Numbered from the stretch's first letter, positions 829 to 49,424 are shown. The stretch is DNA of 64,000 bases from an uncultured Candidatus Saccharibacteria bacterium (GCA_964431025.1 CAYSIB010000001.1:9457-73456); one strand, 5' to 3'. The notes: generated by a model from the letters alone, not told the origin. Translations and numbers: made by a program.

Positions 829-2010
829 ATGACAAAACCAAAAACTCGCAAAGTTAATCTTGGCGGAGCCATCGTTATTTCCGCCGTCACCTTAATCATT
901 GGTGTATTTATCGGTATCAACTGGAACAAAGTCTCTAACTCTTTCTTGCCATATCTCGGGTTTAAATCTACTACCACTACCGACTGGTCTTCGCTCGACG
1001 AAGTTTATAGCGAGTTGGTTGCTAAATATGACGGCAACGTCGACAAGAACGCCGTCATTGAGGGCGCCAAAAAGGGCATTGCCGCCTCCGTCGGCGACGT
1101 CTATACTGCCTACATGACCGCGGAAGAAGCCACCGATTTTAACAAATCCCTCCATGGTGATGTCGGCTCTGGTATCGGCGTTGTCCTTGCCAAGCGCGAC
1201 GGCTACATTAGGATTGTCCGCACCCTACCTGATAACCCTGCATCTAAAGCTGGCATTCTTTCAGGTGATATCATTTACAAAATTAACGGTGAACCAGTTT
1301 ACACCTTAGAAGCTGACGAAATCGCCACCAAACTCCGCGGCGCTTCTGGTACAGAAGTCGAGCTTACCGTTGTCCGAGACGGAGAAGAAAAGTCCTTCAA
1401 ACTCACCCGCGAAGCCATTAATAATGTCTCTGCCTACATTGACTATAATGGCAACACCGCTATCATCCATGTTACTCGCTTTGACACTGACACCGGCAGT
1501 ATCGTTCGCGATTTTACCAAAGAATTTAGTGACAAGGGAATCAATAAAGTCATTCTAGACCTCCGCGATAACGGTGGTGGCTACGTTTCCGCCGCCAAGG
1601 ACTTGCTCAGTCTTTGGATTGATAGTAAGGCCGTTCTCATCCAAAAATCCGCCAAACTTCCTGACGACACTACTTATGCCTCCCATGGTCAAGCCGTCCT
1701 CTCCGACACAAAGACTGTCGTCCTTACTAATGGCAGTACCGCCTCTGCTTCAGAAATCGTCGCTGGCGCACTCAAAGATTACAACAAAGCCACCATCATC
1801 GGCGAAAAAACCTACGGCAAAGGCGTCGTCCAACAACTAGTGAATCTCAGTGGCGGCACCCTACTTAAAGTCACTACCGCCCACTGGTACACGCCAAACG
1901 GCAATTCCATCAATGGTACTGGCATCACCCCAGACAAAGAAGTCACCCGCTCCTACGAAGACATCAATCTGAACCGCGATCCCCAGATGGACGCCGCCCT
2001 TGCTTACTAG
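829..2010 (+). CDS. ctpA: S41 family carboxyl-terminal processing protease (PDZ)
   Basis: N-terminal TM, GIGV PDZ motif, DLRDNGGG, ASASEIVAGALKD, GEKTYGKG. Confidence 0.92.
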   Translation: MTKPKTRKVNLGGAIVISAVTLIIGVFIGINWNKVSNSFLPYLGFKSTTTTDWSSLDEVYSELVAKYDGNVDKNAVIEGAKKGIAASVGDVYTAYMTAEEATDFNKSLHGDVGSGIGVVLAKRDGYIRIVRTLPDNPASKAGILSGDIIYKINGEPVYTLEADEIATKLRGASGTEVELTVVRDGEEKSFKLTREAINNVSAYIDYNGNTAIIHVTRFDTDTGSIVRDFTKEFSDKGINKVILDLRDNGGGYVSAAKDLLSLWIDSKAVLIQKSAKLPDDTTYASHGQAVLSDTKTVVLTNGSTASASEIVAGALKDYNKATIIGEKTYGKGVVQQLVNLSGGTLLKVTTAHWYTPNGNSINGTGITPDKEVTRSYEDINLNRDPQMDAALAY

Positions 2011-2046
2011 AAAAATCTTCAAATTTTGGTATAATATATATAATAT

Positions 2047-2259
2047 ATGGTTGTTAAGGTCTATTACACTAATACCTGTACCTATTGCCATGTTCTGATG
2101 GATTGGCTTGATTCACTTGGTGTGAAATATCAAGAAATTAACGCCGAGACCACAAAAGACGTCAAATCCGTCCCGCTGACGGAAATTGGCAAGCACCGTA
2201 TCACTGGCCTAGACCGCCCAGCCATCCTGAAAGCATTAAAAGAAGAGGGAATCATCTAA
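2047..2259 (+). CDS. Glutaredoxin/NrdH-like redoxin
   Basis: 70 aa, CTYC motif, SVP cis-Pro motif. Confidence 0.8.
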   Translation: MVVKVYYTNTCTYCHVLMDWLDSLGVKYQEINAETTKDVKSVPLTEIGKHRITGLDRPAILKALKEEGII

Positions 2260-2975
2260 TGAAACAGAGCATTATCTTTATGCATGGCTTCCGCGGCAGC
2301 TCACTTGGCATGGAAAAAGTCGCCGCACATTTTGATAGCAAAAAATATGACGTCTACGTTCCTGATATTCCACCCGCCGGAGACGAATCTCTCCCGGAAT
2401 ATTCTCCTCGCTTCTACGCTCGTTTCTTGGCTCGCTATATCAAAGACAATGATATCAAAAACCCTATCCTTGTTGGTCATTCCATGGGGTCTATCATTGC
2501 TGCTATTATGGCTGAGCGCTATCCTGATTTAATCAATCAGAAATTGATCCTCATGTCACCAATCTCCGCCAGGACTGGCCGATTCTTCAGGATGCTGACA
2601 CCGCTCTCTGTACTTCTATCTAATAACACTATCAGCTTTATTACGACTAAATTTCTTTTCGTCCCAAAAAACAAACGCCTCTTCAAGGAATCCTTACTTC
2701 TAACCAAACACTGTGGCGCCAACTATGTTAGTCGCTTTGACGTTTTTAAGGCTGCTAAGTTTTCTACGGAATATTCTATCGCCGACTTTTCTTTTGACAA
2801 AAAAGTCTGCATTATTGCTGGCGACAAAGACCGCCTCATCCCACATAAGAAAACCGACATTTTAGCTGCCAACCTTAATACCAAACCTATCTATATTAAA
2901 AACGCCGGGCATCTCATCAATTACGAAACACCCGGTGAAGTCGCCAAACAGATTAAGAAGTTTTTGAAGGCGTAA
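2259..2975 (+). CDS. Alpha/beta hydrolase
   Basis: HGF oxyanion motif, GHSMG nucleophile elbow, GDKD and AGH catalytic Asp/His motifs. Confidence 0.88.
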   Translation: MKQSIIFMHGFRGSSLGMEKVAAHFDSKKYDVYVPDIPPAGDESLPEYSPRFYARFLARYIKDNDIKNPILVGHSMGSIIAAIMAERYPDLINQKLILMSPISARTGRFFRMLTPLSVLLSNNTISFITTKFLFVPKNKRLFKESLLLTKHCGANYVSRFDVFKAAKFSTEYSIADFSFDKKVCIIAGDKDRLIPHKKTDILAANLNTKPIYIKNAGHLINYETPGEVAKQIKKFLKA

Positions 2976-4218
2976 GCTCGATCGCTTTCTGATAAATCTC
3001 TTCAAAGCGCGACAGGGTATGATTAATGTCGTGCTTTTTTGCGACTTCAATACTCCCAGCGCCGTATTTTTCTTGCAACGCCTTGTTTGTCAAAATCTTC
3101 ACCATTGCTCTTGCCATTTGCGCCACATTATCAGGCTTACAGAGAATACCATTTTTCTTGTTCTGACAAAGCTCCCTTACTGCCCCAGCATCTACTGCGA
3201 CAAGCGGTAATCCGGTCGCCGCCGCTTCAATCAATACGATCCCTTGTGTCTCAGTCTTGCTTGCAGTCGCAAATAGTGTCCCAGTCTTATAAATTTCCTG
3301 AAGCTCTGGCGGCATTACTCTACCTAAAAACCTCACCCTGTCGCTCAAGTTGTTTTCCGCCACCAGCTTTTCTAGCCCCGGCTTAGCAATCCCGTCCCCC
3401 ACAATCAAAAACTCCGCTTCTGGAACTTTCTTCGCCACAATGGTAAACGCTTCTACTACTTCTTCGATTGATTTTTCTGGGTCAACCCGCCCCACATACA
3501 GCACTCTAGGCCTCTTCAAATCAATCGCATATTTCTTCACTATTTCCGCCTTTGGCTTACCCGGATTAAAGGCAGAAAGATCCACTCCATTAGATAGCGC
3601 TTCCACCGACACTTTGAAATGCTTTCGATTCTTTGGTACCAAATCATTAATCGCCATCTCTGTTGGCATGGTTGCATATTCACTATGCTTTAGAAAACTC
3701 GCCATATAGGCCCGCACTGCCGCATCTACCGGCTTTTTCACCGGCTTTAGGAACTTGAATTGCCCCGTCACGTTATCTGGATAAGCATGTCCCGTTGTTA
3801 CAAGCGGCGTATTATTCTTCCTCACATAATGCATCACCGCGATTGCAATTGTCTCCGCTGTCTGAAGATGAATTACGTCCGGCTGAAAATCATCTAACGC
3901 CTTTTTTACTTCAGAAAGCGCCCGCGTAGACCACCAAATTCCGTTTTTATAGGCCAACCTTGGCATAGGCATACCCAGAAATTCTTTCTGCTTTGGCACC
4001 TCATTAATCTGATCTGGATAGAATGGGAACTTAGCCGAGGTCAAATGTACCGTCTTCACACCACATTCATTTTCGACATGATATTCGCCCTTAAAACTCG
4101 GACAAATCACCATCACCTCATGTCCGCGCTTTGCTAGTCCCAGTGCCAAATTATGAGAAAAAACCGCCACTCCGTTTGTCATTGGATAATAGATATCAGA
4201 GGCGATTGCAATTTTCAT
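2953..4218 (-). CDS. GT4 glycosyltransferase (diacylglycerol glycosyltransferase-like)
   Basis: MKIAIASDIYYPMTNGV start, YVGRVDPEK, ETQGIVLIEA donor-binding motif. Confidence 0.88.
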   Translation of the reverse strand: MKIAIASDIYYPMTNGVAVFSHNLALGLAKRGHEVMVICPSFKGEYHVENECGVKTVHLTSAKFPFYPDQINEVPKQKEFLGMPMPRLAYKNGIWWSTRALSEVKKALDDFQPDVIHLQTAETIAIAVMHYVRKNNTPLVTTGHAYPDNVTGQFKFLKPVKKPVDAAVRAYMASFLKHSEYATMPTEMAINDLVPKNRKHFKVSVEALSNGVDLSAFNPGKPKAEIVKKYAIDLKRPRVLYVGRVDPEKSIEEVVEAFTIVAKKVPEAEFLIVGDGIAKPGLEKLVAENNLSDRVRFLGRVMPPELQEIYKTGTLFATASKTETQGIVLIEAAATGLPLVAVDAGAVRELCQNKKNGILCKPDNVAQMARAMVKILTNKALQEKYGAGSIEVAKKHDINHTLSRFEEIYQKAIELTPSKTS

Positions 4219-34980: not shown

Positions 34981-35053
34981 AGGTATTGATTTTTTCACCA
35001 TTTTGTGCTATAATAAGAAAAGTAACTATTGTTATGCATCTTAGGAGGTATCT

Positions 35054-35647
35054 ATGGGTAGAAAAGTTTTTTACCAAGCCTGGGTTAGCGGTCGTAGCGG
35101 AAAATTACGCAAACTCACCCCTGACCAGATTATGTCTGATCTTAAAAAAGATATTGAACTGGGTCGGGAATGGTCAATCGATCCAAAAGAACTTATCGAG
35201 ATAATCTCGAAACCAGAGTTCTCGGAGTACAAATCAAACGAAATCAAGACCATCATCCTCAATTACTGCGCCGATTTATTAACTGGAGACGTAGTTCTAG
35301 GAGAAGAGCCGCTTGATATTCGCATTATCACCTACTGTTATCATACGTCCTACGGGGATGATGCGGTTGCCGCAAAACTCCATTATAAGCAGAGCGTCTT
35401 AAGCTCCACAATCGACCACTATCTGGCAAAACACAGCGACGCAGTCGCCAACATCGGTGATTCCGACCTCAAAAATTGGCGGAAAAACTGGGAAGCCACT
35501 GCAATCAAAAATTTCTGCAGATTCTTTGGCCCAGAGCTTACACGCTGGGAACTAAAAATCCGCAAAAAGTCCAGAAACGACTTCGAGAAATTTTTCGCAA
35601 ACGAACCCACTCCAGAACCCACTCCACTTCAAGAAACAGGGAATTAA
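35054..35647 (+). CDS. Hypothetical protein (orphan cassette A)
   Basis: 197-aa ORF, SD aggaggt, own -10; stop lies inside palindrome P1. Confidence 0.7.
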   Translation: MGRKVFYQAWVSGRSGKLRKLTPDQIMSDLKKDIELGREWSIDPKELIEIISKPEFSEYKSNEIKTIILNYCADLLTGDVVLGEEPLDIRIITYCYHTSYGDDAVAAKLHYKQSVLSSTIDHYLAKHSDAVANIGDSDLKNWRKNWEATAIKNFCRFFGPELTRWELKIRKKSRNDFEKFFANEPTPEPTPLQETGN

Positions 35648-35660
35648 GCTTCCCTGTTTT
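35634..35660. repeat. Palindrome P1 (AAACAGGGAA-ttaagc-TTCCCTGTTT)
   Basis: Perfect inverted repeat; near-identical copies at 36429 and 37141. Confidence 0.85.
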
Positions 35661-35744
35661 TCTGTCTTACGCCTCTATCCGTATGCTATAATTAACCTGT
35701 AACCTGCGTTTGTTCTTTAAAGTTTTGTGGAGGTGATGTTGTTT

Positions 35745-36443
35745 ATGAAGATACAAAGAGTTAACCAACAACTAATATTTACCCCTCTAAATAGGTGTGA
35801 TCCGACAGAAACAGAAATATCAGTCTCAAAATTTATCAAGGAAACCAAGGTCAAAAGCAAAAATCCCGAGACTTCTCTAATTATGACTTTAACTCCGGGA
35901 GTAGTTTTTAATACTTTGCCGTTCCTTTCTACCCGTAGACAAAAAGCTGAAGTCTGTGCCAACTTACTTGATTACTTATCGTTTCGCTTGGAGAAATACA
36001 CCGCGCAAATCGTCAAAGGGGAGACGCCGGCTAGCGTTTTCGTCATCGCAAGCTACTGTCTAAATCACATCTGGGGAACCTATAGCCCCAATAAGACATC
36101 TTGGCCCTCACCCTATTATGCTTCAGCAAACCGTTTTTGCTCGAGCCTGGTTAAGACCGCCGCGGAGGCTCATAGCGTGACGAATCTCGGACAAACTGTT
36201 TCCGATCTTTTCATGATAAATCCAACCTTTCGTCCGCCCAGAAAAACCACTTTTAAGCCCTGGTACGACAACGAATCTGGTACCGCCAAAGAATCTGCCA
36301 TCAGAAACAACGTTTACAAAATTATTCGTAGCGACCCCCTCACGTGGATAGAAGAACTAGGTTTTTTTCTAATCTGGCTTTCAAAAGCCACCATTGTAAG
36401 AGATGTCCATTCCTCCAAAAAGCGTAGCAAAACAGGGAATTAG
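35745..36443 (+). CDS. Hypothetical protein (orphan cassette B)
   Basis: About 232-aa ORF, SD ggaggtg; stop lies inside palindrome P2. Confidence 0.68.
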   Translation: MKIQRVNQQLIFTPLNRCDPTETEISVSKFIKETKVKSKNPETSLIMTLTPGVVFNTLPFLSTRRQKAEVCANLLDYLSFRLEKYTAQIVKGETPASVFVIASYCLNHIWGTYSPNKTSWPSPYYASANRFCSSLVKTAAEAHSVTNLGQTVSDLFMINPTFRPPRKTTFKPWYDNESGTAKESAIRNNVYKIIRSDPLTWIEELGFFLIWLSKATIVRDVHSSKKRSKTGN

Positions 36444-36455
36444 CTTCCCTGTTTT
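36429..36455. repeat. Palindrome P2
   Basis: aaaacagggaa-ttagc-ttccctgtttt. Confidence 0.85.
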
Positions 36456-36457
36456 TC

Positions 36458-36793
36458 CTATTTTACGCTCATCATCGCAAACTGATCGTAATACTTTTGC
36501 ATCTGTTTAGGGTCTGTCTGGAAATAGTTTTCACCAAAAAAGTAATCACAAAACTCCTCCCTCGCCCTACATATCTCCCTAAGCTTAGCCGAATCCTTGT
36601 TGAACTTCATCGAAAGGTCAAATAGTTCTAGTGCTCTGTCAATTGCTGCGTTCATCCGTCGCTCGTTTCTTCCTTGCCATTTTAGCGACCTAGACACTTC
36701 GCTACCAATATTTCCCATTTGCATATTGAAGGGTAACTCGCCCCATCTACCCTCAGCCAGCTCTTGATGCTGATAGCCTACTCCGTTATCCAC
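36458..36793 (-). CDS. Small helical hypothetical protein coupled to DUF5674 gene
   Basis: HQELAEGRW..LPF..QMGNIGSEVSR motif; overlaps upstream gene stop. Confidence 0.75.
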   Translation of the reverse strand: MDNGVGYQHQELAEGRWGELPFNMQMGNIGSEVSRSLKWQGRNERRMNAAIDRALELFDLSMKFNKDSAKLREICRAREEFCDYFFGENYFQTDPKQMQKYYDQFAMMSVK

Positions 36794-37122
36794 CTCTGTA
36801 CTACCTCTGTTATTTTCCGCCTAATTTCAGGATCTTCTACGCCCCTAGAGCGGTTATTTTGTCTTGGACGAATATTAATCATGGAATCAAATTCGATAAA
36901 ATCTTCCGGAGCATCATCTGGATAAAGGTTTATACCCCAAAGAGACTCCTGCAGGGAATCATTCTCCAAAAATAGCTGTTCCAAGTCTGCATGAAGCTGC
37001 GCATCAACGGCAAGCAATCCTTTATCAACGTCCACCACACCCTTTACCATACATTCATCAAAGACGACCTCTGAATTTTTTAGTAAATCATTTTTATTAA
37101 TTGGTGACTTTATTATTTTCAT
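36778..37122 (-). CDS. DUF5674-like protein
   Basis: KGVVDV, HAD, LWGINLYP, IEFDSMINIRP, NRSRGVED; -10/N6/ATG start. Confidence 0.78.
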   Translation of the reverse strand: MKIIKSPINKNDLLKNSEVVFDECMVKGVVDVDKGLLAVDAQLHADLEQLFLENDSLQESLWGINLYPDDAPEDFIEFDSMINIRPRQNNRSRGVEDPEIRRKITEVVQRWITE

Positions 37123-37140
37123 ATCTATATTTTACCATAG

Positions 37141-37169
37141 AAAAACAGGGAATTAACTTCCCTGTTTTT
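37141..37169. repeat. Palindrome P3
   Basis: aaaaacagggaa-ttaac-ttccctgttttt, on the promoter side of the DUF5674 gene. Confidence 0.85.
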
Positions 37170-37547
37170 TCTACCTCACCCCTGTTATAACGCTTCCCCA
37201 CCCCTGTTAGTTCTCTGTTCTGCCTCTGTTAGAACCAAAGCCTTACCATAGCAATCACTTTACCGCCCCTGTTTTATCTCTGTTAAATCCACCCGAGGCC
37301 CTAAGAGCCGCTAAAACGCTTTGAAAAGTCAAAGACGCTATTACAGTCGTCCACGAGCACCAAACGGCCTAGAATCGCACGAGAATGGGGAAATACGACA
37401 AAAATAAGCACAAGCACTACAAAACACGGCAAAATCGACCTACAAAAGACGTATGGACAATCGTCTTTTTCCCAAATCTCCAATGTCGCACAATATATCT
37501 TTTACGACATTAACCCTAGGACAATATGGACGATAGAGTTATGTGTT

Positions 37548-37718
37548 AATAGCCAATAGAAACCTATCTATAGGTCCATAAAGGCGGATTTCACCTTAGA
37601 AGAATGAGGAGCAAACACCTAACGAGCACGATTTAGACCGGCGCAGTTAGGGTTTGCGAGTCATTCGGATAAGGCTGAAACCAAGAGGACCTATAGATAG
37701 GTTTTTATTGGCGCTATT
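37548..37718. repeat. Rod-like palindromic element copy 1 (117-bp core 37574-37690)
   Basis: Core identical to 41328-41444; about 30-bp inverted arms. Confidence 0.9.
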
Positions 37719-38002
37719 CAGGCTCTTCTGACCTCTCTCAGAATCGCTTTTTCACCCCCACCCCTGTTACATCGCGTTTTTTGGCCAATTTTGATCCAAA
37801 TTTGCCCAAATTTTTCAATTTGACTTTTCCCTGCATTTATTTTGTTTTGAGTAGTTCTCCCCTGTTATTCCCTCCCCCACCCGCCAAAATCGAGCCATTT
37901 TCCAACTTTAATTTCTCGTTCAATTCCCCACTAATTCCAAAAACCGAACAAAAACCGAACTTAAGATTTCCCCTGTTTTAGCCCCTGTTGTATAATATAT
38001 CC

Positions 38003-38680
38003 ATGTACAAAGAGTTCAAATCCGAGCTTGTTTCCCTTGCCGACGACGAGTATCGTGACTTTTCCATGCGCGGCATTCCCTGTGACCGCCCTTTCATTGG
38101 TGTTCGCATCCCATTAATTAGGAAATTAACGAATAAAATCCCTGCTTCCGTCTTTCCTGAATTCCTTAGCGCAAAACCAATTGCTATAGAAGAAGTCATC
38201 GCCCGGGGTTTTATTATCGCACGCCTCCCGTATGAAGAAATGCTAAAATATTTTGATTCCCAAATACAATTCCTAGATAACTGGTGCACCGTTGACGTCT
38301 TTTGCTCCGCACTAAGAAAGCCCGTGAAAGGCCACGAAGAAGGCTTTCTTCCAAAAATCGAAGAACTTCTCCAATCTAAAGACGAATTTTCCGTTCGTGC
38401 TGGACTCGTGCTTTTGTTGGACTTGTATGTTAAACCAGAATATTTGCAGCTGGTTTTTGATCGCATCGAATCCTTACGCAATCGTGATGAATATTATGTC
38501 AAAATGGCGCTCGCCTGGCTCCTCGCCGAATGTTTTATCAAATATCCAGACATTACATACGACTATCTAAACAGTTCCAAACTCGGAAAATGGACTTTCA
38601 ATAAAGCCATCTCCAAGATTTGCGATTCTTATCGCGTCACTCCCGAGGTCAAATCCGAACTCAAACTCCTCCGCAAGTAA
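38003..38680 (+). CDS. DNA alkylation repair protein (AlkD-like HEAT repeat)
   Basis: IGVRIP, LDNWCTVD, EFSVR, YYVKMALAWLLAE. Confidence 0.88.
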   Translation: MYKEFKSELVSLADDEYRDFSMRGIPCDRPFIGVRIPLIRKLTNKIPASVFPEFLSAKPIAIEEVIARGFIIARLPYEEMLKYFDSQIQFLDNWCTVDVFCSALRKPVKGHEEGFLPKIEELLQSKDEFSVRAGLVLLLDLYVKPEYLQLVFDRIESLRNRDEYYVKMALAWLLAECFIKYPDITYDYLNSSKLGKWTFNKAISKICDSYRVTPEVKSELKLLRK

Positions 38681-38687
38681 TTCTCTT

Positions 38688-38984
38688 GAGCTACTTCTCT
38701 TCCGCGAAGCCTATCATTTTATTGAGAGTGGAAAAGGAAATATCTATGGGACCACCGGCCTTAGTACTATTCTAAATGAATTCCCTCTCGACATGGTCTA
38801 CGCAGGCAACATCTATTTTGGTGATGGTACGAGATATGATAACGAAACTGGCGGCGTAAACTGGTCACAATATGCTCTGCCCGACAATCAAGCATCTGCG
38901 GTCAACTTCAGCGACGTCTACGTTGGCCCCAATCACGGCAATCAAAGAAGATATGGCTTCTCCGTCCGCTGTGTAGCGAAATAA
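38688..38984 (+). pseudogene. Silent FISUMP-like C-terminal cassette C1
   Basis: ELLLFREAYHFIESG...FPLDMVYAG...NWSQ...RRYGFSVRCVAK*; no N-terminal part or own promoter. Confidence 0.8.
38696..38735 (+). repeat. 40-bp cassette-start repeat R1
   Basis: tctcttccgcgaagcctatcattttattgagagtggaaaa; copies at 39265, 40151, 41008. Confidence 0.95.
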
Positions 38985-39251
38985 CTCGGCGGCTCCGGAG
39001 AGAACCGCACCGATACTACTCAAAGGAATAAGTTCATTAATTCACCATATAACTTCCCCTACTCCGGGTTCTACAATTACGGAGGCGGGGTCGGCGGTCA
39101 GGGCTCGGACGGGCACTGGTGGTCTCGTAGTGCCACAACTCAGGCCGGCCAAGCCTACCACTTCGACCTGGATACCAATGGCCGCGTGTACCCGCAGAAC
39201 AACTACTCTAGCGTTGGGTACGGGTTCGCAGTCCGCTGCATGGCTGAGTAG
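38985..39251 (+). pseudogene. Silent FISUMP-like C-terminal cassette C2
   Basis: Starts right after C1 stop; SPYNFPYSG...WWSRS...AYHF...GYGFAVRCMAE*; no start codon. Confidence 0.85.
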
Positions 39252-39264
39252 CTATTGGCTATAT

Positions 39265-39304
39265 TCTCTTCCGCGAAGCCTATCATTTTATTGAAAGTGG
39301 AGAA
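39265..39304 (+). repeat. 40-bp cassette-start repeat R2
   Basis: One mismatch to consensus (gaaagt). Confidence 0.95.
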
Positions 39305-39541
39305 ACGACTGCTGGCACAAATTCTGGTGGCCCAGCAGCTAGCGCAGCCATCAAACAATACCCATTCTCCTATACGTATTCTGGACGCGTCATTGGCGGT
39401 AACATTCAATACATTGGTGAATATGGATTTCTATGGACAATCAGAACCGAAACGGATACTGATGCAAATACGCTTAGATTCTACGAGCCAGTCGTATCGG
39501 TAACAAATTCCTTCAATAGAAGACAAGGTTTTCCCGTCCGC
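39266..39541 (+). pseudogene. Silent FISUMP-like C-terminal cassette C3 (ends at GFPVR)
   Basis: LFREAYHFIESGE...YPFSYTYSG...LWT...RRQGFPVR, then runs into the fic stop codon. Confidence 0.78.
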
Positions 39542-40101
39542 TACAAATTATGCACGTCGTATTCAGATTGCTCTTCGTATTCGTAAGAAGATTGTATCCC
39601 CTTCATATACACTTCACGATCATTGATATCGGAAGTCAATGCAGACTCGAGCAGAGTCTTTATTTCCAAATCATTTATCGGCGAACGCTCCATCGCAGAA
39701 AGATATTCTTCCTTCCCTATCTTTGACCAATCTACACATTTTCCAAGTCTCTTCTTCAAAATCTGATCTAGCCAAATTCTCGTTGCCCGACCATTTCCTT
39801 CACGGAACGGATGTGCCACGTTCATTTCTACATATTTTTTTACAATTTCATCAAAAGTATTTTCCGGAAGATTATCGATGGTTTTTAAAGTATCTTCAAG
39901 ATAAATTGCCGGCGCAAACCGAAAATTCCCCTTAGAGAGATCCACGTCACGAATCTTCCCTGCAAAGTCAAAAACGTCCTGGAATAAATAACGATGTATC
40001 TGTTTTAGCCCCTCAGTCGTACCGACCTCAAACTCGTCGATTTTTCCAGTATCATATAATTCAATAGCTCGTTTTTTACTAGCTAATTCTTCATTCTGCA
40101 T
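39541..40101 (-). CDS. fic: Class III-type Fic protein adenylyltransferase
   Basis: HPFREGNGRATR, C-terminal GIQSSYEYEE; tggtataat-N6-ATG at 40101. Confidence 0.92.
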   Translation of the reverse strand: MQNEELASKKRAIELYDTGKIDEFEVGTTEGLKQIHRYLFQDVFDFAGKIRDVDLSKGNFRFAPAIYLEDTLKTIDNLPENTFDEIVKKYVEMNVAHPFREGNGRATRIWLDQILKKRLGKCVDWSKIGKEEYLSAMERSPINDLEIKTLLESALTSDINDREVYMKGIQSSYEYEEQSEYDVHNL

Positions 40102-40150
40102 ACTACTATTATACCATGAAAACCGCACCTCTTTAAGCTCTTAAGCTACT

Positions 40151-40190
40151 TCTCTTCCGCGAAGCCTATCATTTTATTGAGAGTGGAGAA
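40151..40190 (+). repeat. 40-bp cassette-start repeat R3
   Basis: Consensus copy. Confidence 0.95.
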
Positions 40191-40448
40191 ACAAGTACGT
40201 GGTCTGAAGGACCGAGCATTAGCATCACCCTTTTCCCTTTCTCGCAAACTTATGCAGGTGGCATAGGAGACAATGGAACTGGCGGTGGATTAGATGACGG
40301 AACAGATCTAGAATATGGACTATACCACACGATGAGAGCACTATCATCCGATCATGCAAACTACTTCGATTCTCATCAAGGAAGTTATATTATACCTCAA
40401 AACAACGGGCCAAGAAAATGGGGTATGCCCGTCCCGCTTTACAAATAA
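40152..40448 (+). pseudogene. Silent FISUMP-like C-terminal cassette C4 (3' end altered)
   Basis: LFREAYHFIESGE...FPFSQTYAG...PQNNGPRKWGMPV-PLYK*. Confidence 0.72.
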
Positions 40449-40472
40449 ACATAAGTGTGATAGCATAAGAAC

Positions 40473-40543
40473 ATAAAGGAAGTGGCCCAGAATTCCACTT
40501 CCGAATGTTAGGTTTAGCTCGTCGCTTTAGCGGCGGGCTTTTT
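40473..40543 (+). ncRNA. Putative antisense sRNA (type I antitoxin-like)
   Basis: TGa-TAGCAT -10 at 40458-40466, hairpin ggaagtgg/ccacttcc, terminator agctcgtcgc/gcggcgggct+T5 whose G-U pairs favour the + strand. Confidence 0.45.
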
Positions 40544-40595
40544 TGAGAACAAACGATACATTGTATTTTCCAATATGTATTGTGATTCCAAGCAT
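40527..40595 (-). CDS. 22-aa small peptide MLGITIHIGKYKCIVCSQKARR (type I toxin-like candidate)
   Basis: SD aaaggag upstream; stop sits in the loop region of the opposite-strand terminator. Confidence 0.45.
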   Translation of the reverse strand: MLGITIHIGKYNVSFVLKKARR

Positions 40596-40748
40596 ACGTC
40601 CCACTCCTTTCCCAAAAATGCCGGCGGGTTTATCTGGTTCACCTACCTCGCAGTTAGCATTTCTGTAACTTACGCTGTAGCCAAAACCCCACACCCAGTT
40701 TTACTGTCTCAAATTATTCCGCTAATTGCAAGCGCTAGCATAATGATT

Positions 40749-40994
40749 AACCGCACCAATGCTGCTCAAAGGGATAAGTTCATTAGTTCACCATATAACT
40801 TCCCCTACTCCGGGTACTACGATTACGGAAGCGGGGTCAACAATCAGGGCTCGGACGGGTACTGGTGGTCTAGAAGCAGCTTCACTGCGGCCGGCCAAGC
40901 CTACAACTTCCGCCCGTATACCGATGGCCGCGTGAACCCGCAGAACAACAATGACGTTGGGTACGGGTTCGCGGTCCGCTGCGTAGTTGAGTAG
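40749..40994 (+). pseudogene. Silent FISUMP-like C-terminal cassette C5 (paralog of C2)
   Basis: NRT..QRDKFISSPYNFPYSG...WWSRS...GYGFAVRCVVE*; about 85% nt identical to C2. Confidence 0.85.
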
Positions 40995-41007
40995 CTATTG
41001 AGCTTTA

Positions 41008-41047
41008 TCTCTTCCGCGAAGCCTATCATTTTATTGAGAGTGGAGAA
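41008..41047 (+). repeat. 40-bp cassette-start repeat R4
   Basis: Consensus copy. Confidence 0.95.
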
Positions 41048-41314
41048 ACCAGCACAGTAGAAATGACGATAATTGAAACTGCACTCTCATATCCAACAGA
41101 ACTCCAATACTCTGGATATACAGACGGATCAAGGGGGACAATTGGTGGCAGAGATTCGGGTGGCTGGTTTTGGGTGCCACGGGCCATAAGCAGCATTGCC
41201 GCAAACGGATTAGATATCAGAGCAGCCGGGTTCAACCCGCAGACATTCACAAGTAAGAAAACGGGATATGACGTCCGCTGTGTAGCCAAGGCGTACCTAG
41301 ATTGGCAAGTTTAA
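41009..41314 (+). pseudogene. Silent FISUMP-like C-terminal cassette C6
   Basis: LFREAYHFIESGE...YPTELQYSG...WFW...KKTGYDVRCVAK. Confidence 0.78.
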
Positions 41315-41466
41315 TTCTATTTCTCAAGTCCATAAAGGCGGATTTCACCTTAGAAGAATGAGGAGCAAACACCTAACGAGCACGATTTAGACCGGCGCAG
41401 TTAGGGTTTGCGAGTCATTCGGATAAGGCTGAAACCAAGAGGACTTGAAAATAGAATTAAGCTTGC
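41304..41466. repeat. Rod-like palindromic element copy 2 (117-bp core 41328-41444)
   Basis: Identical core, different roughly 25-bp inverted arms. Confidence 0.9.
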
Positions 41467-41492
41467 TAACCACAAGCACAAATTAGCCTCTA

Positions 41493-42029
41493 CTACTTGT
41501 AATACCCCTTCCCTTTCACCCTCACATCCACATACTGCGGATGAAGGTCGTTCTCAGTCAAATACTTCAGCATTGTCTTCGTATCCTCTGCGCTCACCGC
41601 CGTACCCCTATCTACGCTCAACTTAAAATACGTCTCATTCCCATCTAGGTAAATATCGATTTCTCGAGTTTTCCCTGCCGGCACCACCGCTCTATTAAGT
41701 GACAATCCAATGTCAGAAAGATCGATCTCCAGCTGCCCCACATACTCCTTAATTTTACTAGTGATTCCCTGCCCTGATTCGTCAATAATTTCCACTGTCG
41801 GCTGAGGAATGTATTTTGACATCTCAATCTTTTTACGATTCGTCATCCAAGTTGTCACTTCCATCACGATGATGATAGCGATAATCGCAAGAATCGCCAC
41901 TAGTGCCAGCACCTTAAAAATCTTCTTGTTTTTCTCTTTTTTCCTAGCAGCCAGACGCTCCGATTCAGACTCTTGCCTCTCCCATTCCTGGGCAATCGTC
42001 CGCCCGACTCTTACATCATTCTTTCTCAT
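41493..42029 (-). CDS. Bitopic membrane protein, FtsQ/DivIB-like C-terminal domain
   Basis: Follows murG, single TM, ends YVDVRVKGKGYYK. Confidence 0.6.
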   Translation of the reverse strand: MRKNDVRVGRTIAQEWERQESESERLAARKKEKNKKIFKVLALVAILAIIAIIIVMEVTTWMTNRKKIEMSKYIPQPTVEIIDESGQGITSKIKEYVGQLEIDLSDIGLSLNRAVVPAGKTREIDIYLDGNETYFKLSVDRGTAVSAEDTKTMLKYLTENDLHPQYVDVRVKGKGYYK

Positions 42030-43278
42030 CCAGACCACCCGTATCATTCGCTAATTTTATCAAAATATCCGCAAGATCTTTTGCTGCCTTTGGCTTATAC
42101 GTCTCATGCAATTTCGCCGCTAAATCTTTTCTAACTTTTGGACTTCTTACCAGTCTTTGTACTTCTTCTAGCAAAATCCCAGGTTGGTTAACCATGCGCC
42201 CATCTTTCACCATCACTACCGCCCCAAGACTCAGCAGCCTCTCTGCATTTTTTACTTGGTGACTACCAGGAAGTTGTTCAAACGGCACTAGTATTACCGC
42301 TTTTGCGAGCGCTGCCAACTCTGCAATTGTGGTTGCTCCGGCACGAGAAACTACTACGTCCGCCGCACCCATCAGCTCATTCATCGCCGAGTTAAACGCC
42401 CACATTCTAAAATTAGACTTGAGCTTAGCTTTATCCCAATCTTCATATTTTTTAAGGTCAACCATCTCTTCATAACGGCTGCGTCCAGCTACCAGCCCCA
42501 CACTAGTAAACTTCAACATCTCTGGCAAAATTTCACGCACCGCTTCATTAATGTGCTGCGCGCCCTGGCTTCCGCCCGTGATCACTACTAGTGGTTTTTC
42601 TTCATCAAACCCAAACGCTTTTTTAAGCTGCTTCTGCTTAGTCTCACTAACCCTCTTAAACTCCGGCGCCACCGGCACCCCAGTAAGCACCACTTTTGGA
42701 TCAGGCTCTACTCCGTCAATTTCTTCCACCGGCAAACTTGTTGCCACTTTTGTCGCGTGCTTCACTAGAAGCCTATTCGCTAACCCCGGCGTCGCATCAC
42801 TCTCATGAATCACATACGGAATCTTATAAAATCTCGCCACAATCCCCACCGGCAAGCCCACAAATCCCCCTTTCAAGAAAATCACATCTGGGCGATTCTT
42901 TTTTAGAAGCATCCGGAAGAAGCTTTGGAATATCCCACCCATAAATCCAATCAATCCGCCAATATTTCCAAATATTAAATCTTTTAGCGTAGTGTCCCAG
43001 TTTTTAAAATAATCCGCCAAACTCCATCCAGCATAGCGTCTAAATTTTCCCGCCGCAACTTTTCTTACCTGAATATACTGTCTTTTTCCCGAAACACGCG
43101 ACTCTTCACCCCATGCCACCCCTATTTCTGTTGTAATTTTTACAACATTTTTGTAATATTTCTTATCAGTCCAGAATTCTACTCTGGCTCTCGGTTTTTC
43201 TTCTAAAATCTCACGGACGACCGCGACGGCTGGCGTAATGTGTCCCCCCGAGCCCCCGCCTACTACTAATACTTTCAT
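42016..43278 (-). CDS. murG: UDP-GlcNAc:lipid I GlcNAc transferase
   Basis: GGGSGGHITP, KGGFVG, HESD, TGGSQGA, SRAGATT. Confidence 0.95.
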   Translation of the reverse strand: MKVLVVGGGSGGHITPAVAVVREILEEKPRARVEFWTDKKYYKNVVKITTEIGVAWGEESRVSGKRQYIQVRKVAAGKFRRYAGWSLADYFKNWDTTLKDLIFGNIGGLIGFMGGIFQSFFRMLLKKNRPDVIFLKGGFVGLPVGIVARFYKIPYVIHESDATPGLANRLLVKHATKVATSLPVEEIDGVEPDPKVVLTGVPVAPEFKRVSETKQKQLKKAFGFDEEKPLVVITGGSQGAQHINEAVREILPEMLKFTSVGLVAGRSRYEEMVDLKKYEDWDKAKLKSNFRMWAFNSAMNELMGAADVVVSRAGATTIAELAALAKAVILVPFEQLPGSHQVKNAERLLSLGAVVMVKDGRMVNQPGILLEEVQRLVRSPKVRKDLAAKLHETYKPKAAKDLADILIKLANDTGGLDEKE

Positions 43279-44410
43279 TTTTTACCTCCCTTCCAGTATA
43301 ACACGAAAGTTGACAAACCAATCCAAGTGAGAAAGCGATAAATATCATACTCGTACCACCATAAGAAAGCAGTGGCAAAGTGATACCCGTCAACGGCACC
43401 AATCCCGTCATCGCCGCGATATTTACCACCACTTGCGCCGCAATCCAGGCAAACACTCCTACTACCACTAAACTTTCTTCCGTACTACTCTTAGTCGCGA
43501 CTTTCAAGATTCGCATTAGCAAGAAAGTAAACGCAATCACTACCGCAGAAAGCCCCACAAAACCAAATGTCTCGCCCATCACCGCAAAGACCGAGTCGTT
43601 AATTGACTCCGGCAGGTATCCCGTCGCCTGCACGCTATTCCCTATTCCAACCCCCAAGAGTCCACCCGTACCAATCGCCATTTTAGCATTGTCGATATGA
43701 TAAGTTTCATCCGAACTTCCGCTTCCAGAAAAGGTCGTCATACGCTCCAAGCGATGCGGAGAACTCACGATCGCCACCACTCCACCAACCAGTGCGAGCG
43801 CCACAATTACCGCAAACACGCTTATTTTTATTCCGCCCATATACATGATCGCAAGCACTATTGCTAGCACTGCTAGACCCGTACCCAGATCCTTCTGCAA
43901 AATCACTACAAAGAACAGTGCTAGAAGCGCCACAATCGCGTATGGCTGCAAATAATCACGCGACTCTAGCTTTCCTTCTTTCTTCCACTTCGCCGTCAGT
44001 TGTGCAAGATATAGCACTAACCCCAGCTTCAAAAATTCTGCCGGCTGAAAACTTACCGCCCCAAGGTTAAACCACCTACATCCACCTAACTCACACTTCG
44101 CAAGCGAACTCCCAATCAATGAAAGCAATGCTAACGCCGCGCAAAGCCCCAGCCCCACAAATACCAAAATCTTCGAATAAGTTTTCAGCTTTTCAAATGG
44201 AAATTTAAACGCTACGATAAACGCCGCTACAGATAATCCTACCGACAAAAGCTGATGCAAGAAAAAATAATTCGAACTATAATCTGTTCCGTACGCCGAA
44301 TTCATAAAATTAGCCCTTTGCGGCCCAATCGCATAAATCACCACCAGCCCCACAGCCAGTAGCACAAAGGTAATAATTGCAATCAATCGATCACTCTTAT
44401 GCTTTCTCAT
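43211..44410 (-). CDS. ftsW: SEDS peptidoglycan glycosyltransferase
   Basis: FQPAEFLK, QKDLGT, LPESINDSVF, LPLLSYGG; dcw context. Confidence 0.9.
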   Translation of the reverse strand: MRKHKSDRLIAIITFVLLAVGLVVIYAIGPQRANFMNSAYGTDYSSNYFFLHQLLSVGLSVAAFIVAFKFPFEKLKTYSKILVFVGLGLCAALALLSLIGSSLAKCELGGCRWFNLGAVSFQPAEFLKLGLVLYLAQLTAKWKKEGKLESRDYLQPYAIVALLALFFVVILQKDLGTGLAVLAIVLAIMYMGGIKISVFAVIVALALVGGVVAIVSSPHRLERMTTFSGSGSSDETYHIDNAKMAIGTGGLLGVGIGNSVQATGYLPESINDSVFAVMGETFGFVGLSAVVIAFTFLLMRILKVATKSSTEESLVVVGVFAWIAAQVVVNIAAMTGLVPLTGITLPLLSYGGTSMIFIAFSLGLVCQLSCYTGREVKNESISSRRGLGGTHYASRRGRP

Positions 44411-48843: not shown

Positions 48844-49424
48844 ACATATATTTTAACATATATGCATAGCGACGTTTGAGATCGCCCAACTAGAAATTTT
48901 CGCGTGTTTGTTTTTGTATAGTTTTTGTTAGAACACACTTAAATTTTCACCACGGACAGAGTCCGTAGTCGTTGAGAGACTTAATGTGTGATTGGTTGTT
49001 TATTAGAGTTAATTGGGAGGTGTTTATTTAGATGTACCCATGGTTTTGATTTCGCGTATCCTAAACGCGCGCCAAAACTCCTAGTTGGCCAATCTCAAAC
49101 TTTTTTAATGTACTTTTTTATTTGGTGGTTTTTATTTTATGTATTCCACTTGTCCTTAGTTTAACCAACTATTTTCAAAAAATCAAGACCTTTTTTGGCC
49201 AATTTTTGCCCTTTTTTGTTTTCCACCGCCCCTGTGGAAAACAGTTCCTTGACTTCACACCCACCTGTGTTATAACTACCGTACATTTCCGGAAAATTCC
49301 AAGTCCAGTTTTGTTCGGTTTTTACGCCTTGACAAATCCAAGCGTTTATTTCAATTAATTTTATTCTTCAACTCCCTTTTGTGCTATAATTAGGGGCAGT
49401 TACAGCTAACAAAAAAGGAGTTTT

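Follow-up and report, generated by a model that had tools for sequence, protein, structure and literature searches.

A directly repeated 117-bp sequence of a Saccharibacteria genome as the likely core of nested palindromic intergenic repeats that form a lineage-specific family

What is a non-coding sequence that occurs twice, without a single difference, on both sides of a tract of genes? We met this question in a 64,000-nucleotide stretch of DNA from an uncultured Candidatus Saccharibacteria bacterium (GCA_964431025.1 CAYSIB010000001.1:9457-73456), which as a whole is called the window here. A first-pass annotation, made from the sequence alone, had proposed that the repeat keeps its folded structure independently of its sequence, and that it is either a non-coding RNA of 160–170 nt or a non-autonomous element which targets or creates palindromes and may mobilise the tract.

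The two cores agree over 117 nt at 100% identity in direct orientation (Table 1), and they flank alkD (37988–38680, Pfam DNA_alkylation) and the cassette array, as had been described. A 22-mer of the core has just these two sites in the window, where 0 are expected by chance. In the repeat search the match can be extended to 127 nt at 97%, and the part beyond the 117-nt core is a chance similarity at the starts of the arms. Each core is enclosed by its own left and right arms of ~25 bp, which pair with each other and, as also noticed at first, are unrelated between the copies (z 1.4–1.6, not significant). According to the inverted-repeat search, the arms of copy 1 (37552–37577 and 37687–37712) are 96% complementary over 26 nt, and those of copy 2 (41302–41322 and 41449–41469) 90% over 21 nt, or ~26 nt with one bulge. 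The left arm of copy 1 does not resemble any arm of copy 2, of the type-B copies described below, or of the orthologous element in the sister species G046. At copy 2, the left arm overlaps the end of the last cassette ORF (41063–41314), and the right arm ends 23 nt short of the stop codon of a convergent ftsQ-like gene (41493–42047, - strand).

The fold of the whole of copy 1 has an energy of -84.8 kcal/mol (z = -13.1) for the + strand, compared with -79.9 kcal/mol (z = -11.9) for the - strand. The helices named by the first-pass annotation, together with the 3x3 purine-rich internal loops, are recovered in the predicted fold. The core of copy 1 consists of a 4-bp closing stem (GUCC/GGAC), followed by a junction loop (5' AUAAAGGC / 3' AAGAG), a rod with the 3x3 purine loops, and the apical module.

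Table 1 Features of the two copies and of the locus around them (window coordinates).
Feature	Position	Strand	Basis
Copy 1 (E1), left outer arm, site-specific	37548..37573	+	inverted repeat I2; paired in MFE fold
Copy 1, core, type A	37574..37690	+	100% identical to 41328-41444
Copy 1, apical module: P3 CCUAAC/GUUAGG, internal loop GAGCA/GCGCA, P4 and loop	37618..37651	+	
Copy 1, right outer arm, with T-run GGTTTTTATTGG inside	37691..37712	+	inverted repeat I2, fold
Conserved non-coding block r1 (CCCCTGTTA motifs, CCGAACAAAAACCGAAC)	37713..37964	.	alignment with G046
Lineage-specific 3.5-kb insertion relative to G046	37965..41492	.	BLAST of locus L005, Pfam
Copy 2 (E2), left outer arm	41302..41327	+	inverted repeat I4
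Copy 2, core, identical to copy 1 core	41328..41444	+	
Copy 2, right outer arm	41445..41469	+	inverted-repeat search

Genome-wide and cross-genome searches, as proposed by the first-pass annotation, uncover a multi-copy family and not just the two copies of the window. The source genome (G000, 0.70 Mb) holds four copies in two types, A and B, and relatives are found in G003, G046, G049, G022, and G440. A covariance model of the apical module matches 26 of the 201 genomes of the genus, with 1–19 copies each, while the family is missing from most of its species. Copy bursts are seen in G003 and G571; bursts reach 10–19 near-identical copies and break assemblies, and many copies lie at contig ends in G003, G571, and G499. 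In a sample of the taxonomic family (400 genomes, 95 genera) there is no match outside the genus Nanosyncoccus, and in a collection of species-representative genomes the apical motif occurs in Nanosyncoccus/Saccharibacteria MAGs only. Most of the checked carriers also cluster by the identity of their ftsQ-like protein (79% for G046; 56–62% for G049, G003, G022, G009, and G032; less than 47% for all remaining genomes), and outside this group there are a few weaker matches of the apical model, in G013, G019, and G056. Overall, it seems rather probable to us that the sequence repeated over 117 bp forms the conserved centre of nested palindromic intergenic repeats, a lineage-specific family that belongs to one subclade of Ca. 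Nanosyncoccus (Saccharibacteria). Full-text searches of a paper library for palindromic, REP or MITE repeats of Saccharibacteria, Patescibacteria or Nanosyncoccus listed no description of such elements, and the family apparently has not been described so far.

The members share a layered architecture. From outside inward, there are site-specific arms forming an almost perfect outer stem of 20–45 bp, unique per site; a junction loop that is conserved and asymmetric; a rod that varies, with covariation between its two sides; and a nearly invariant apical module in which helix P3 is followed by a 5x5 internal loop (5'-GAGYA/5'-GCRCA) and by a P4 hairpin, either short or long. This module is the best-conserved segment in all subfamilies. 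The core of copy 1 is 72–76% identical to its type-B, G046, and G003 relatives, with compensatory changes present. In the apical domain (P3 and P4) 98.6% of cells are paired, and 27 double-compensated cases are counted against 5.6 in shuffles, none of 500 shuffles reaching 27; in the full alignment, compensatory changes occur at 12 of 32 pairs. These counts bear out the proposal that structure is kept independently of sequence. In addition, since the unpaired nucleotides of the junction loop and of the 5x5 apical loop are invariant, specific recognition by a protein, or a specific fold, is implied; passive recombination alone leaves them unexplained.

The elements are tightly fitted between gene ends and fill stop-to-stop gaps, in the position that is taken by an ordinary bidirectional terminator hairpin in related species. 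The site behind ppa illustrates this: most species have a plain terminator there, and in G022 and G440 an element extends from stop codon to stop codon, with the native ppa end AAGCAGTAA in its left arm and the inverted copy TTACTGCTT in the right one. Such an element probably doubles as the gene-end hairpin of its host, with a putative terminator function. The flanks of the arms tend to prolong the palindrome by an A-run on the left and a T-run on the right, and no direct target-site duplication is seen beside the arms in G000, G003, and G571. Both core orientations occur, between species and between loci: the core is inverted between the orthologous sites L017 and L019, the slot of copy 1 holds a family copy with a flipped core in G003, and L169 and L170 of G532 have the same asymmetric arm pair around cores of opposite orientation. 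Many full copies are trailed by a 5'-truncated remnant made of the junction motif and an old right arm, a pattern for which gene conversion alone gives no clean derivation.

The slot of copy 1 is an old hot spot that follows the ftsQ-like gene and the block r1. In G046, G022, G049, G003, G009, and G020, r1 lies directly downstream of this gene and adjoins its stop codon; the layout of gene, r1, and slot is ancestral in six species, and the slot holds a family member in G000, G046, G003, and G440. In the BLAST comparison, positions 303–1940 of L005 correspond to 36394–37964 of the window and 1956–3111 to 41493–42645, and the sister species G046 is without the intervening segment, which comprises the alkD-like gene, Fib_succ/DGR-VR-like cassettes, a Fic gene, and copy 2. 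On its left, this indel begins ~250 bp beyond copy 1, and it includes copy 2 at its far end. This observation bears directly on whether the two copies are attL/attR-like or composite-transposon-like ends of a unit carrying alkD and the cassette array. The tract is indeed bracketed by direct repeats, but copy 1 and the 250 bp of conserved r1 stay outside the segment missing from G046 while copy 2 is within it, the surrounding layout is ancestral, each copy has arms that pair with each other, and the alkD of G003 is in an unrelated context with no element beside it. We regard such ends as extremely unlikely and already largely refuted, and the idea that the pair mobilises the tract could not be upheld. 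Empty sites of copy 1 and copy 2 were looked for and none was found, so gain or loss there is not directly seen.

It is also necessary to ask whether the cores work as RNA, e.g., as a 3'-end or terminator module acting in cis, as an RNA that binds a protein, or as a new small ribozyme, the outer arms then being no more than the closing helix (P1), which is variable in many RNA families. The very strong covariation and the invariant loop nucleotides favour a functional structured RNA, as does the location at gene ends, where read-through transcripts exist and where convergent genes lead to transcription of both strands between them. This position also fits a bidirectional terminator, and T- or A-runs flank or sit in many arms. 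On the other hand, the Rfam covariance search of 35000–44000 gives no match at E<=1, and that of nine related loci nothing relevant at E<=0.1. No convincing promoter-like site is placed for the + strand core, and the consensus scan calls no terminator, as the stems exceed its model. The orientation to tandem flanking genes is mixed (~3 sense, ~5 antisense), in addition to the flips at orthologous sites. Three arm mismatches are G-T on the + strand, in line with the G-U pairs of the first-pass annotation, but 21 members of the family have no consistent strand asymmetry (G-U 57 on the sense strand, 80 on the antisense strand), and the sense strand has no surplus of G-U. The absence of the family from most species of the genus and the bursts also count against an RNA function, as do unrelated hairpins with the same layout of a core in unique arms. 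A stand-alone ncRNA gene of 160–170 nt is therefore not borne out, and a functional structured RNA in general seems unlikely to us. The genome further has a diversity-generating retroelement (DGR), with two reverse transcriptases, a template repeat beside the one on contig C10, and at least 13 VR-like copies; three of the four copies in G000 come after cassette ends, and L003 begins ~20 nt past a VR end. It could thus be supposed that the elements are accessory cruciforms which mark variable-repeat ends for mutagenic homing. We find this very improbable, as copy 1 and most copies in other genomes come after unrelated genes, e.g., ppa, aminoacyl-tRNA synthetase genes or the ftsQ-like gene, and reverse transcriptases also occur in species without the element. 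Known DGR target hairpins differ as well, having short GC-rich stems and 4-nt loops. The reverse transcriptases (C1:1894–2580 and C10:25308–26030) are distant from all four copies; this distance, the DGR template repeat next to the C10 enzyme, and the lack of an Rfam retron match speak against a retron msr-msd.

The other initial suggestion, a non-autonomous repeat tied to palindromes, is supported: the family is multi-copy, confined to one clade, and expanded by bursts in G003 and G571, two genomes have identical cores within unrelated arms, and one arm can carry an inverted native gene end. The arms of copy 2 resemble those of type B (left, z = 3.3, p ~0.002; right, z = 3.2), a modest likeness in which left and right arms are not independent tests; the arms of copy 1 show no such resemblance. 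As copy 2 has type-B-like arms, its core has probably been replaced by that of copy 1, or the other way round. The two type-B copies of G000 come after cassette ends. In G532, the cores of L171 and L172 are 1 nt apart inside unrelated perfect arms, and in G003 a single arm family surrounds two different cores plus a third, unrelated rod. On contig C17 of the source genome, another hairpin family has an ~80-nt core that is 100% identical, inverted, and inside unrelated arms.

The family may be viewed, as a proposal, as non-autonomous, transposase-less repeat DNA whose modules would be copied or swapped between hairpins, with outer arms made from, or shared with, local sequence. A recent non-reciprocal replacement of the core between the copies 3.7 kb apart would be the most likely event, either by gene conversion of a short patch, with the conserved ~20-nt end motifs as anchors, or by a template switch across the folded hairpin; both the copying mechanism and the direction of conversion are putative. 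The search for a transposase covered the Y1/RAYT family (PF01797) and gave 0 matches in 12 genomes (8 carriers, 4 non-carriers) with positive control genomes; a DDE, serine or tyrosine enzyme may act in trans. It is possible, if on the unlikely side, that the true mobile unit is the core itself (with or without a short inner stem), inserting into the apical loops of already existing DNA hairpins or cruciforms by a trans-acting enzyme or template switching, after which a polymerase folding back on the new hairpin would copy the left flank and so create or extend the site-specific arms. The inverted native ppa codons in the right arm are consistent with this, and at a paralogous gene end in G003 there is a short and 'empty' hairpin (AGCAGAATT-loop-AATTCTGCT), whereas other G003 paralogs have a full element there in which the former loop has become paired; this hairpin may equally be a deletion derivative. 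The Russian-doll nesting, in which one apical module occurs in three junction types and one junction and arm set around different inner rods, and the identical cores in unrelated arms, seen in two genomes and two families, point in the same direction. Nevertheless, the arms are unlike native terminator stems (the GC-rich inner stem is absent), neither a target-site duplication nor an enzyme has been found, and the likeness of copy 2 to type-B arms fits core replacement in an existing element better than fresh insertion.

Several known systems share features with the family. REP, BIME and REPIN sequences are likewise intergenic, multi-copy, palindromic, lineage-specific, found after stop codons in both orientations, and able to act as RNA 3'-end hairpins or terminators, but REPs are 20–40 nt long with a conserved stem sequence, whereas here the centre and loops are conserved and the long outer stems are site-unique. 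With unrelated outer stems and no RAYT gene in the 12 genomes, we rejected a REP/REPIN assignment. Palindromic MITE-like repeats (ERIC/IRU, YPAL, Correia/NEMIS, RUP, Rickettsia RPE) are also non-coding, 100–200 bp long, and form long RNA or DNA hairpins in transcribed intergenic regions, with bursts in some genomes. MITEs, however, keep their terminal inverted repeats constant from copy to copy and make direct target-site duplications, whereas here type-A copies share no arm sequence, no such duplication was seen, and an arm can be the inverted end of the flanking gene, all of which speaks against this class too. Shared terminal arms exist only in the sub-bursts of G003, of G571, and of type B, where the upstream flanks are often paralogous too, and searching G003 by arm pattern yielded only elements, remnants, and one short hairpin, with no larger IS. 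Integron attC sites resemble the family in keeping structure over sequence, conserving unpaired bases, standing at the 3' ends of cassette-like genes, and being thought to work as folded single strands. Their layout is the opposite, with conserved outer boxes (RYYYAAC/GTTRRRY) and a variable centre; our elements have unique ends and no R''/R' boxes, and follow housekeeping genes too, which sets them apart from this class. Invertons and flip-flop terminal hairpins such as parvoviral ITRs share an asymmetric centre between inverted arms and both orientations at the same site, but here no invertase or Rep-type (Y1/HUH) nickase was detected (PF01797 only), and the arms are not shared recognition sites.

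For the origin of the arms, one parallel is quasipalindrome template switching and fold-back inverted duplication, known from the Ripley model and from fold-back priming in yeast (PMC10622511). Such a mechanism would account for arms that pair perfectly, for arm changes that are compensated from one species to another, and for a native flank that reappears inverted in the arm on the other side. It is known for few-base mutations or gross rearrangements, not as the propagation of a conserved repeat family, and its link to the nested repeats is putative. More speculatively, and rather unlikely in our judgement, DNA could propagate without a transposase in the ultra-small Saccharibacteria, very stable cores with a conserved recognition loop copying themselves into the apexes of other hairpins, or being copied by template switching while replisome fold-back writes a site-specific palindromic arm from the adjoining sequence, or else the invariant 5x5 apical loop could mark a new protein-binding or catalytic nucleic-acid motif. 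Russian-doll hairpins taking over ordinary terminators would be the outcome of such propagation.

Bacterial palindromic repeats such as REP, ERIC, and MITEs are defined by their conserved ends. The nested repeats reverse this logic, as a constrained and conserved centre is set in unique, near-perfect arms, and the layout of a core in unrelated arms recurs with several unrelated cores in the same 0.7-Mb genome. In genomes so reduced, any tolerated repeat is noteworthy, and these repeats sit where housekeeping genes have their terminators and show turnover at fixed slots. If template switching or apex-targeted insertion is true, it would be a new route for the spread of non-coding DNA and the remodelling of gene ends in CPR bacteria, and it would also explain many assembly breaks in CPR MAGs.

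We have compared the two copies of the repeat in the window, E1 (core 37574-37690) and E2 (core 41328-41444). Their cores are 100% identical over 117 nt and in direct orientation, and the arms that enclose them show no similarity between the two copies. With its arms, E1 folds at -84.8 kcal/mol on the + strand (z = -13.1), the - strand being almost as stable, and a 22-mer of the core has just two occurrences in the window, i.e., E1 and E2. The first-pass annotation has thus described the pair correctly, down to each copy having its own arms. Its argument from G-U pairing, on the other hand, is not general: a strand-specific folding test of G-U versus A-C pairs shows no asymmetry, and with 57 G-U pairs on the 'sense' strand versus 80 on the other there is no 'sense' enrichment. 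The coordinates of the features are collected in the table, in which the names ftsQ-like, murG and ftsW were given by eye, on translations and gene order, and are backed by no family match.

Coordinates of the features discussed (window positions unless a contig, C, or an extracted locus, L, is named)
Feature	Location	Remarks
E1 arms	37552-37577 / 37687-37712	26 nt, 96% complementary
E2 arms	41302-41322 / 41449-41469	90% complementary; differ from those of E1
DUF5674 gene	36778-37122	- strand
AlkD-like gene	37988-38680	Pfam DNA_alkylation
VR-like cassette segments	39003-39260, 40749-41000	
Fic/DOC-family gene	39541-40128	intact, inside cassette tract; - strand, opposite to cassettes
ftsQ-like gene	41493-42047	- strand; then murG, ftsW
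22-bp inverted repeat around 187 nt	48872-49102 (genome C1:58328-58558)	just upstream of ppa
DGR template copy	C10:24874-25074	outside window
RT	C10:25308-26030	outside window
C17 nested-hairpin pair	C17:3662-3790, C17:5617-5745	opposite orientation; arms 23-25 bp
Other nested-hairpin families, same genome	C9:17718-17808, C19:587-677; C4:20780-20901	
Element + remnant	L111, L112, L113, L117, L123; L005 1640-1680; L035	G003; G046; G440
ppa-slot palindromes	L055, L056, L057, L064, L065, L067	G020, G003, G009, G038, G052, G016

The assembly that holds the window (702 kb, 25 contigs, 94% complete) carries two more copies on contigs C11 and C5 (type B, 72% identical; the window cores are type A), which have arms in common and both follow cassette-type gene ends. 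Relatives were also found in the genomes G003, G046 and G049, and further ones, G022 and G440, in a sample of 400 genomes from 95 genera of the taxonomic family; BLAST and two covariance models detected none outside this genus. With a covariance model of the apical part, 26 of 201 genomes of the genus are positive, with 1-19 copies each, many at contig ends; the highest numbers are in G003 (19) and G571 (10), and most of the genus is without the family. Those relatives in which the apical motif recurs are MAGs under the names Candidatus Nanosyncoccus or Saccharibacteria, several of them from goat gut. Identity of the ftsQ-like protein is 79% for G046, 56-62% for G049, G003, G022, G009 and G032, and below 47% for all others. 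As this measure groups most of the checked carriers together, the family belongs mainly to one subclade; G013, G019 and G056, outside the carrier group, give a few weaker matches to the apical model. Exact-pattern searches gave 0 matches in JGI metagenome contigs, both for a type-A 23-mer and for the apical motif, and 0 in viral contigs. A full-text literature search listed no paper on such elements, and the family has apparently been described nowhere before.

Comparison of 21 distinct copies reveals an element of four layers. The outer arms, of 20-45 bp, are nearly perfect and unlike from site to site. Inside them is a junction internal loop whose sequence sets the subfamily: 5' AUAAARGCGGAUUUCACC / 3' GGCUGAAACCAAG in types A and B, G003 and G049; 5' UUAAGGAGUUUUC / 3' GAAAACGACUA in part of G022 and G440; and 5' UUGACGAACC / 3' UGACGUGAGGAAAC in 'type C'. 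Then follows a rod whose sequence varies freely among copies with its pairing kept, and which in type A has purine-rich internal loops. The innermost layer, an apical module common to almost all copies, is made up of the P3 helix, an internal loop of 5x5 (5'-GAGYA / 5'-GCRCA) and P4; the last takes one of two forms, CCG-UUUAGU-CGG or a longer stem that carries a CUGUAA-type loop. The modules are separable, since a 'mini' form in G049 keeps the junction motif and has only a simple hairpin where the apical module would be.

The proposal that structure is conserved independently of sequence is borne out by this comparison. P3 has at least 10 different sequences, all fully compensated. In a gap-free alignment of 16 sequences, 98.6% of cells are paired and 27 show changes on both sides, compared with 5.6 in shuffles, none of 500 shuffles attaining 27; all slid registers collapse. 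In the first nine sequences, RNAalifold finds compensatory changes in 12 of 32 pairs.

We then consider the position of the two copies. Apart from 37965-41492, which has no counterpart there, the window is collinear with locus L005 of G046: 36394-37964 corresponds to L005 303-1940 (match at 73%) and 41493-42645 to L005 1956-3111 (match at 75%). In G046, G022, G049, G003, G009 and G020, the ftsQ-like gene is directly followed by r1, a conserved non-coding block (37713-37964 in the window), then by a variable 'slot' and a second conserved non-coding block. Judged by these alignments, alkD, the cassettes and E2 were inserted between r1 and the ftsQ-like gene in the lineage of this genome. E1 lies outside the insertion and E2 within it, therefore the repeats are not the ends of the inserted tract; the suggestion that the pair mobilises it is not upheld, and, on the edges of the indel, attL/attR sites or a composite transposon are rejected. 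An empty site for E2 was not found, the only alkD homologs of the relatives sitting in unrelated contexts. The slot itself holds a family member in this genome (E1), in G046, in G003 (inverted relative to E1) and in G440 (of a different junction type), and other palindromes in G049 and G020. Between E1 and the G046 element, flank identity exceeds 80% and core identity is about 74-76%, but the arms have nothing in common. G046 retains, just right of its element, a remnant like the 3' junction motif of E1 with its outer right arm, which indicates that the slot changed by replacement rather than by drift in place.

Other sequences nearby are conserved as well. A non-coding block at 37300-37545, probably on the - strand, is conserved in the subclade and beyond (the same six species), with small hairpins (GTCGTAAAAGATACATTGTGCGAC, AGACGAT...CGTCT), the motif TATTTCCCCAYTC and no Rfam match; it may be a conserved small RNA or regulatory region beside the hot-spot slot. 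Dense repeats of CCCCTGTTA / AACAGGGG, together with CCGAACAAAAACCGAAC, occupy r1 and 37140-37290; their conservation downstream of the ftsQ-like gene extends to six species. This motif also stands ahead of alkD (CCCCTGTTGTATAATAT), and might be a promoter or regulator-binding motif specific to the lineage.

The first-pass annotation had also proposed, as one possibility, an ncRNA of 160-170 nt. The evidence weighs against a housekeeping RNA gene: with a permissive threshold, Rfam gave nothing relevant for the region and related loci, no convincing promoter-like site placed to drive the + strand core was found and no terminator was called, G-U pairs give no support, the elements stand in either orientation relative to tandem flanking genes and are flipped at orthologous sites, and most of the genus is without the family. 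By-eye inspection for hammerhead, k-turn, sarcin-ricin and SRP-like motifs found none conserved across subtypes. As for enzymes, a Y1/RAYT (IS200) transposase gene, the sole transposase family covered, was absent in 12 genomes. A link to reverse transcriptase (RT) was dropped, since carriers and non-carriers both have RTs, which are part of a diversity-generating retroelement (DGR).

The template repeat of this DGR adjoins the RT on contig C10. Its VR-like copies number at least 13, of which two fall in the window; the Fib_succ_major-like C-terminal fragments in the window end ...VRCV. The C-terminal cassette segment, about 255 nt, has at least 13 genome copies at 81-99% identity, and the mismatches of the AAC/AAT-rich one beside the RT favour its adenines (A 256 versus T 101, G 101 and C 142, with noisy alignment ends). 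The system is a DGR whose set of variable-repeat cassettes is unusually large, and many of the cassettes seem to be silent fragments.

A role as a gene-end (terminator) hairpin is likely, as predicted from position. The elements fit tightly between gene ends, frequently of convergent pairs. The stretch that follows ppa was compared across 30 species. Most have a plain terminator (A-run, GC-stem, T-run), several have different long rod-like palindromes, and in G022 and G440 an element spans from stop codon to stop codon. In the latter two, the left arm takes in the native ppa end AAGCAGTAA, whose WNKQ* ending is also conserved where species have no element, and the right arm carries an inverted copy, TTACTGCTT, abutting the stop codon of a convergent aminoacyl-tRNA synthetase gene. 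Since the right arm inverts the native end, the arm seems to be templated, at least in part, on local sequence. Insertion of the core into the loop of a native terminator is rejected as the sole model, the arms being without the GC-rich inner stem and A/T-run design of this genome's terminators. In different species (see table), the terminator position after ppa is taken by at least five more rod-like palindromes, unrelated to one another and none fitting an Rfam family; in G003 and G052, the outer arms cover the stop codon and last codons of a C-terminally extended ppa. The inverted repeat upstream of ppa may be another large palindromic insert.

The identical cores in different arms most likely result from a recent replacement of one core by the other, the two resident hairpins being 3.7 kb apart. 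The arms of E2 resemble those of type B (z = 3.3 and 3.2, p about 0.002) and those of E1 do not; E2 and the type-B copies alike follow cassette ends. The cores of A, B, G046 and G003 are only ~73% identical to each other, compared with 100% for E1 and E2. E2 would then be a former B-lineage hairpin whose core was recently overwritten by E1 sequence, or the reverse, possibly by short-patch conversion with homology supplied by the 20-nt conserved motifs at both core ends; the identity tract ends where homology ends.

Comparable combinations occur elsewhere. In G532, two cores 1 base apart lie inside unrelated perfect arms (L171/L172), and one asymmetric arm pair encloses a core in both orientations (L169/L170). 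In G003, one arm family surrounds two different cores; in L120 it surrounds an unrelated rod, which that genome also has downstream of ppa. On C17 of the present genome, an unrelated hairpin of ~80 nt has two inverted, 100% identical copies with unrelated arms. Accordingly, a conserved centre with unique arms is a general property of this lineage's hairpins, not of one core.

Whole units have spread, too. G003 and G571 contain many near-identical units including arms, at which their assemblies are broken. Many of these copies come after one and the same paralogous gene end, so in part they have spread by hitch-hiking as gene ends were duplicated. One G003 paralog has only a short hairpin, AGCAGAATT-loop-AATTCTGCT, and other paralogs have the full element with the former loop now paired; the short form represents an empty site or else the product of a deletion. 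Full copies are repeatedly trailed, 4-10 nt on, by a 5'-truncated remnant with a diverged right arm, always truncated at the 3' junction motif (CTGAAACCAAG or TGACGTGAGAAAGC). L112 joins the left arm of one variant to the core and right arm of another, and the pattern may point to one-sided copying from a donor, running out through the donor's right arm. Propagation might proceed by gene conversion, apex insertion or fold-back template switching.

Overall, the element belongs to a family of nested palindromic repeats that is restricted to a clade; its core is under structural constraint and its arms are specific to the site. The invariant unpaired bases and clean covariation show that a folded single strand and particular loop nucleotides are under selection, as would be expected of a recognition site, in DNA or RNA.
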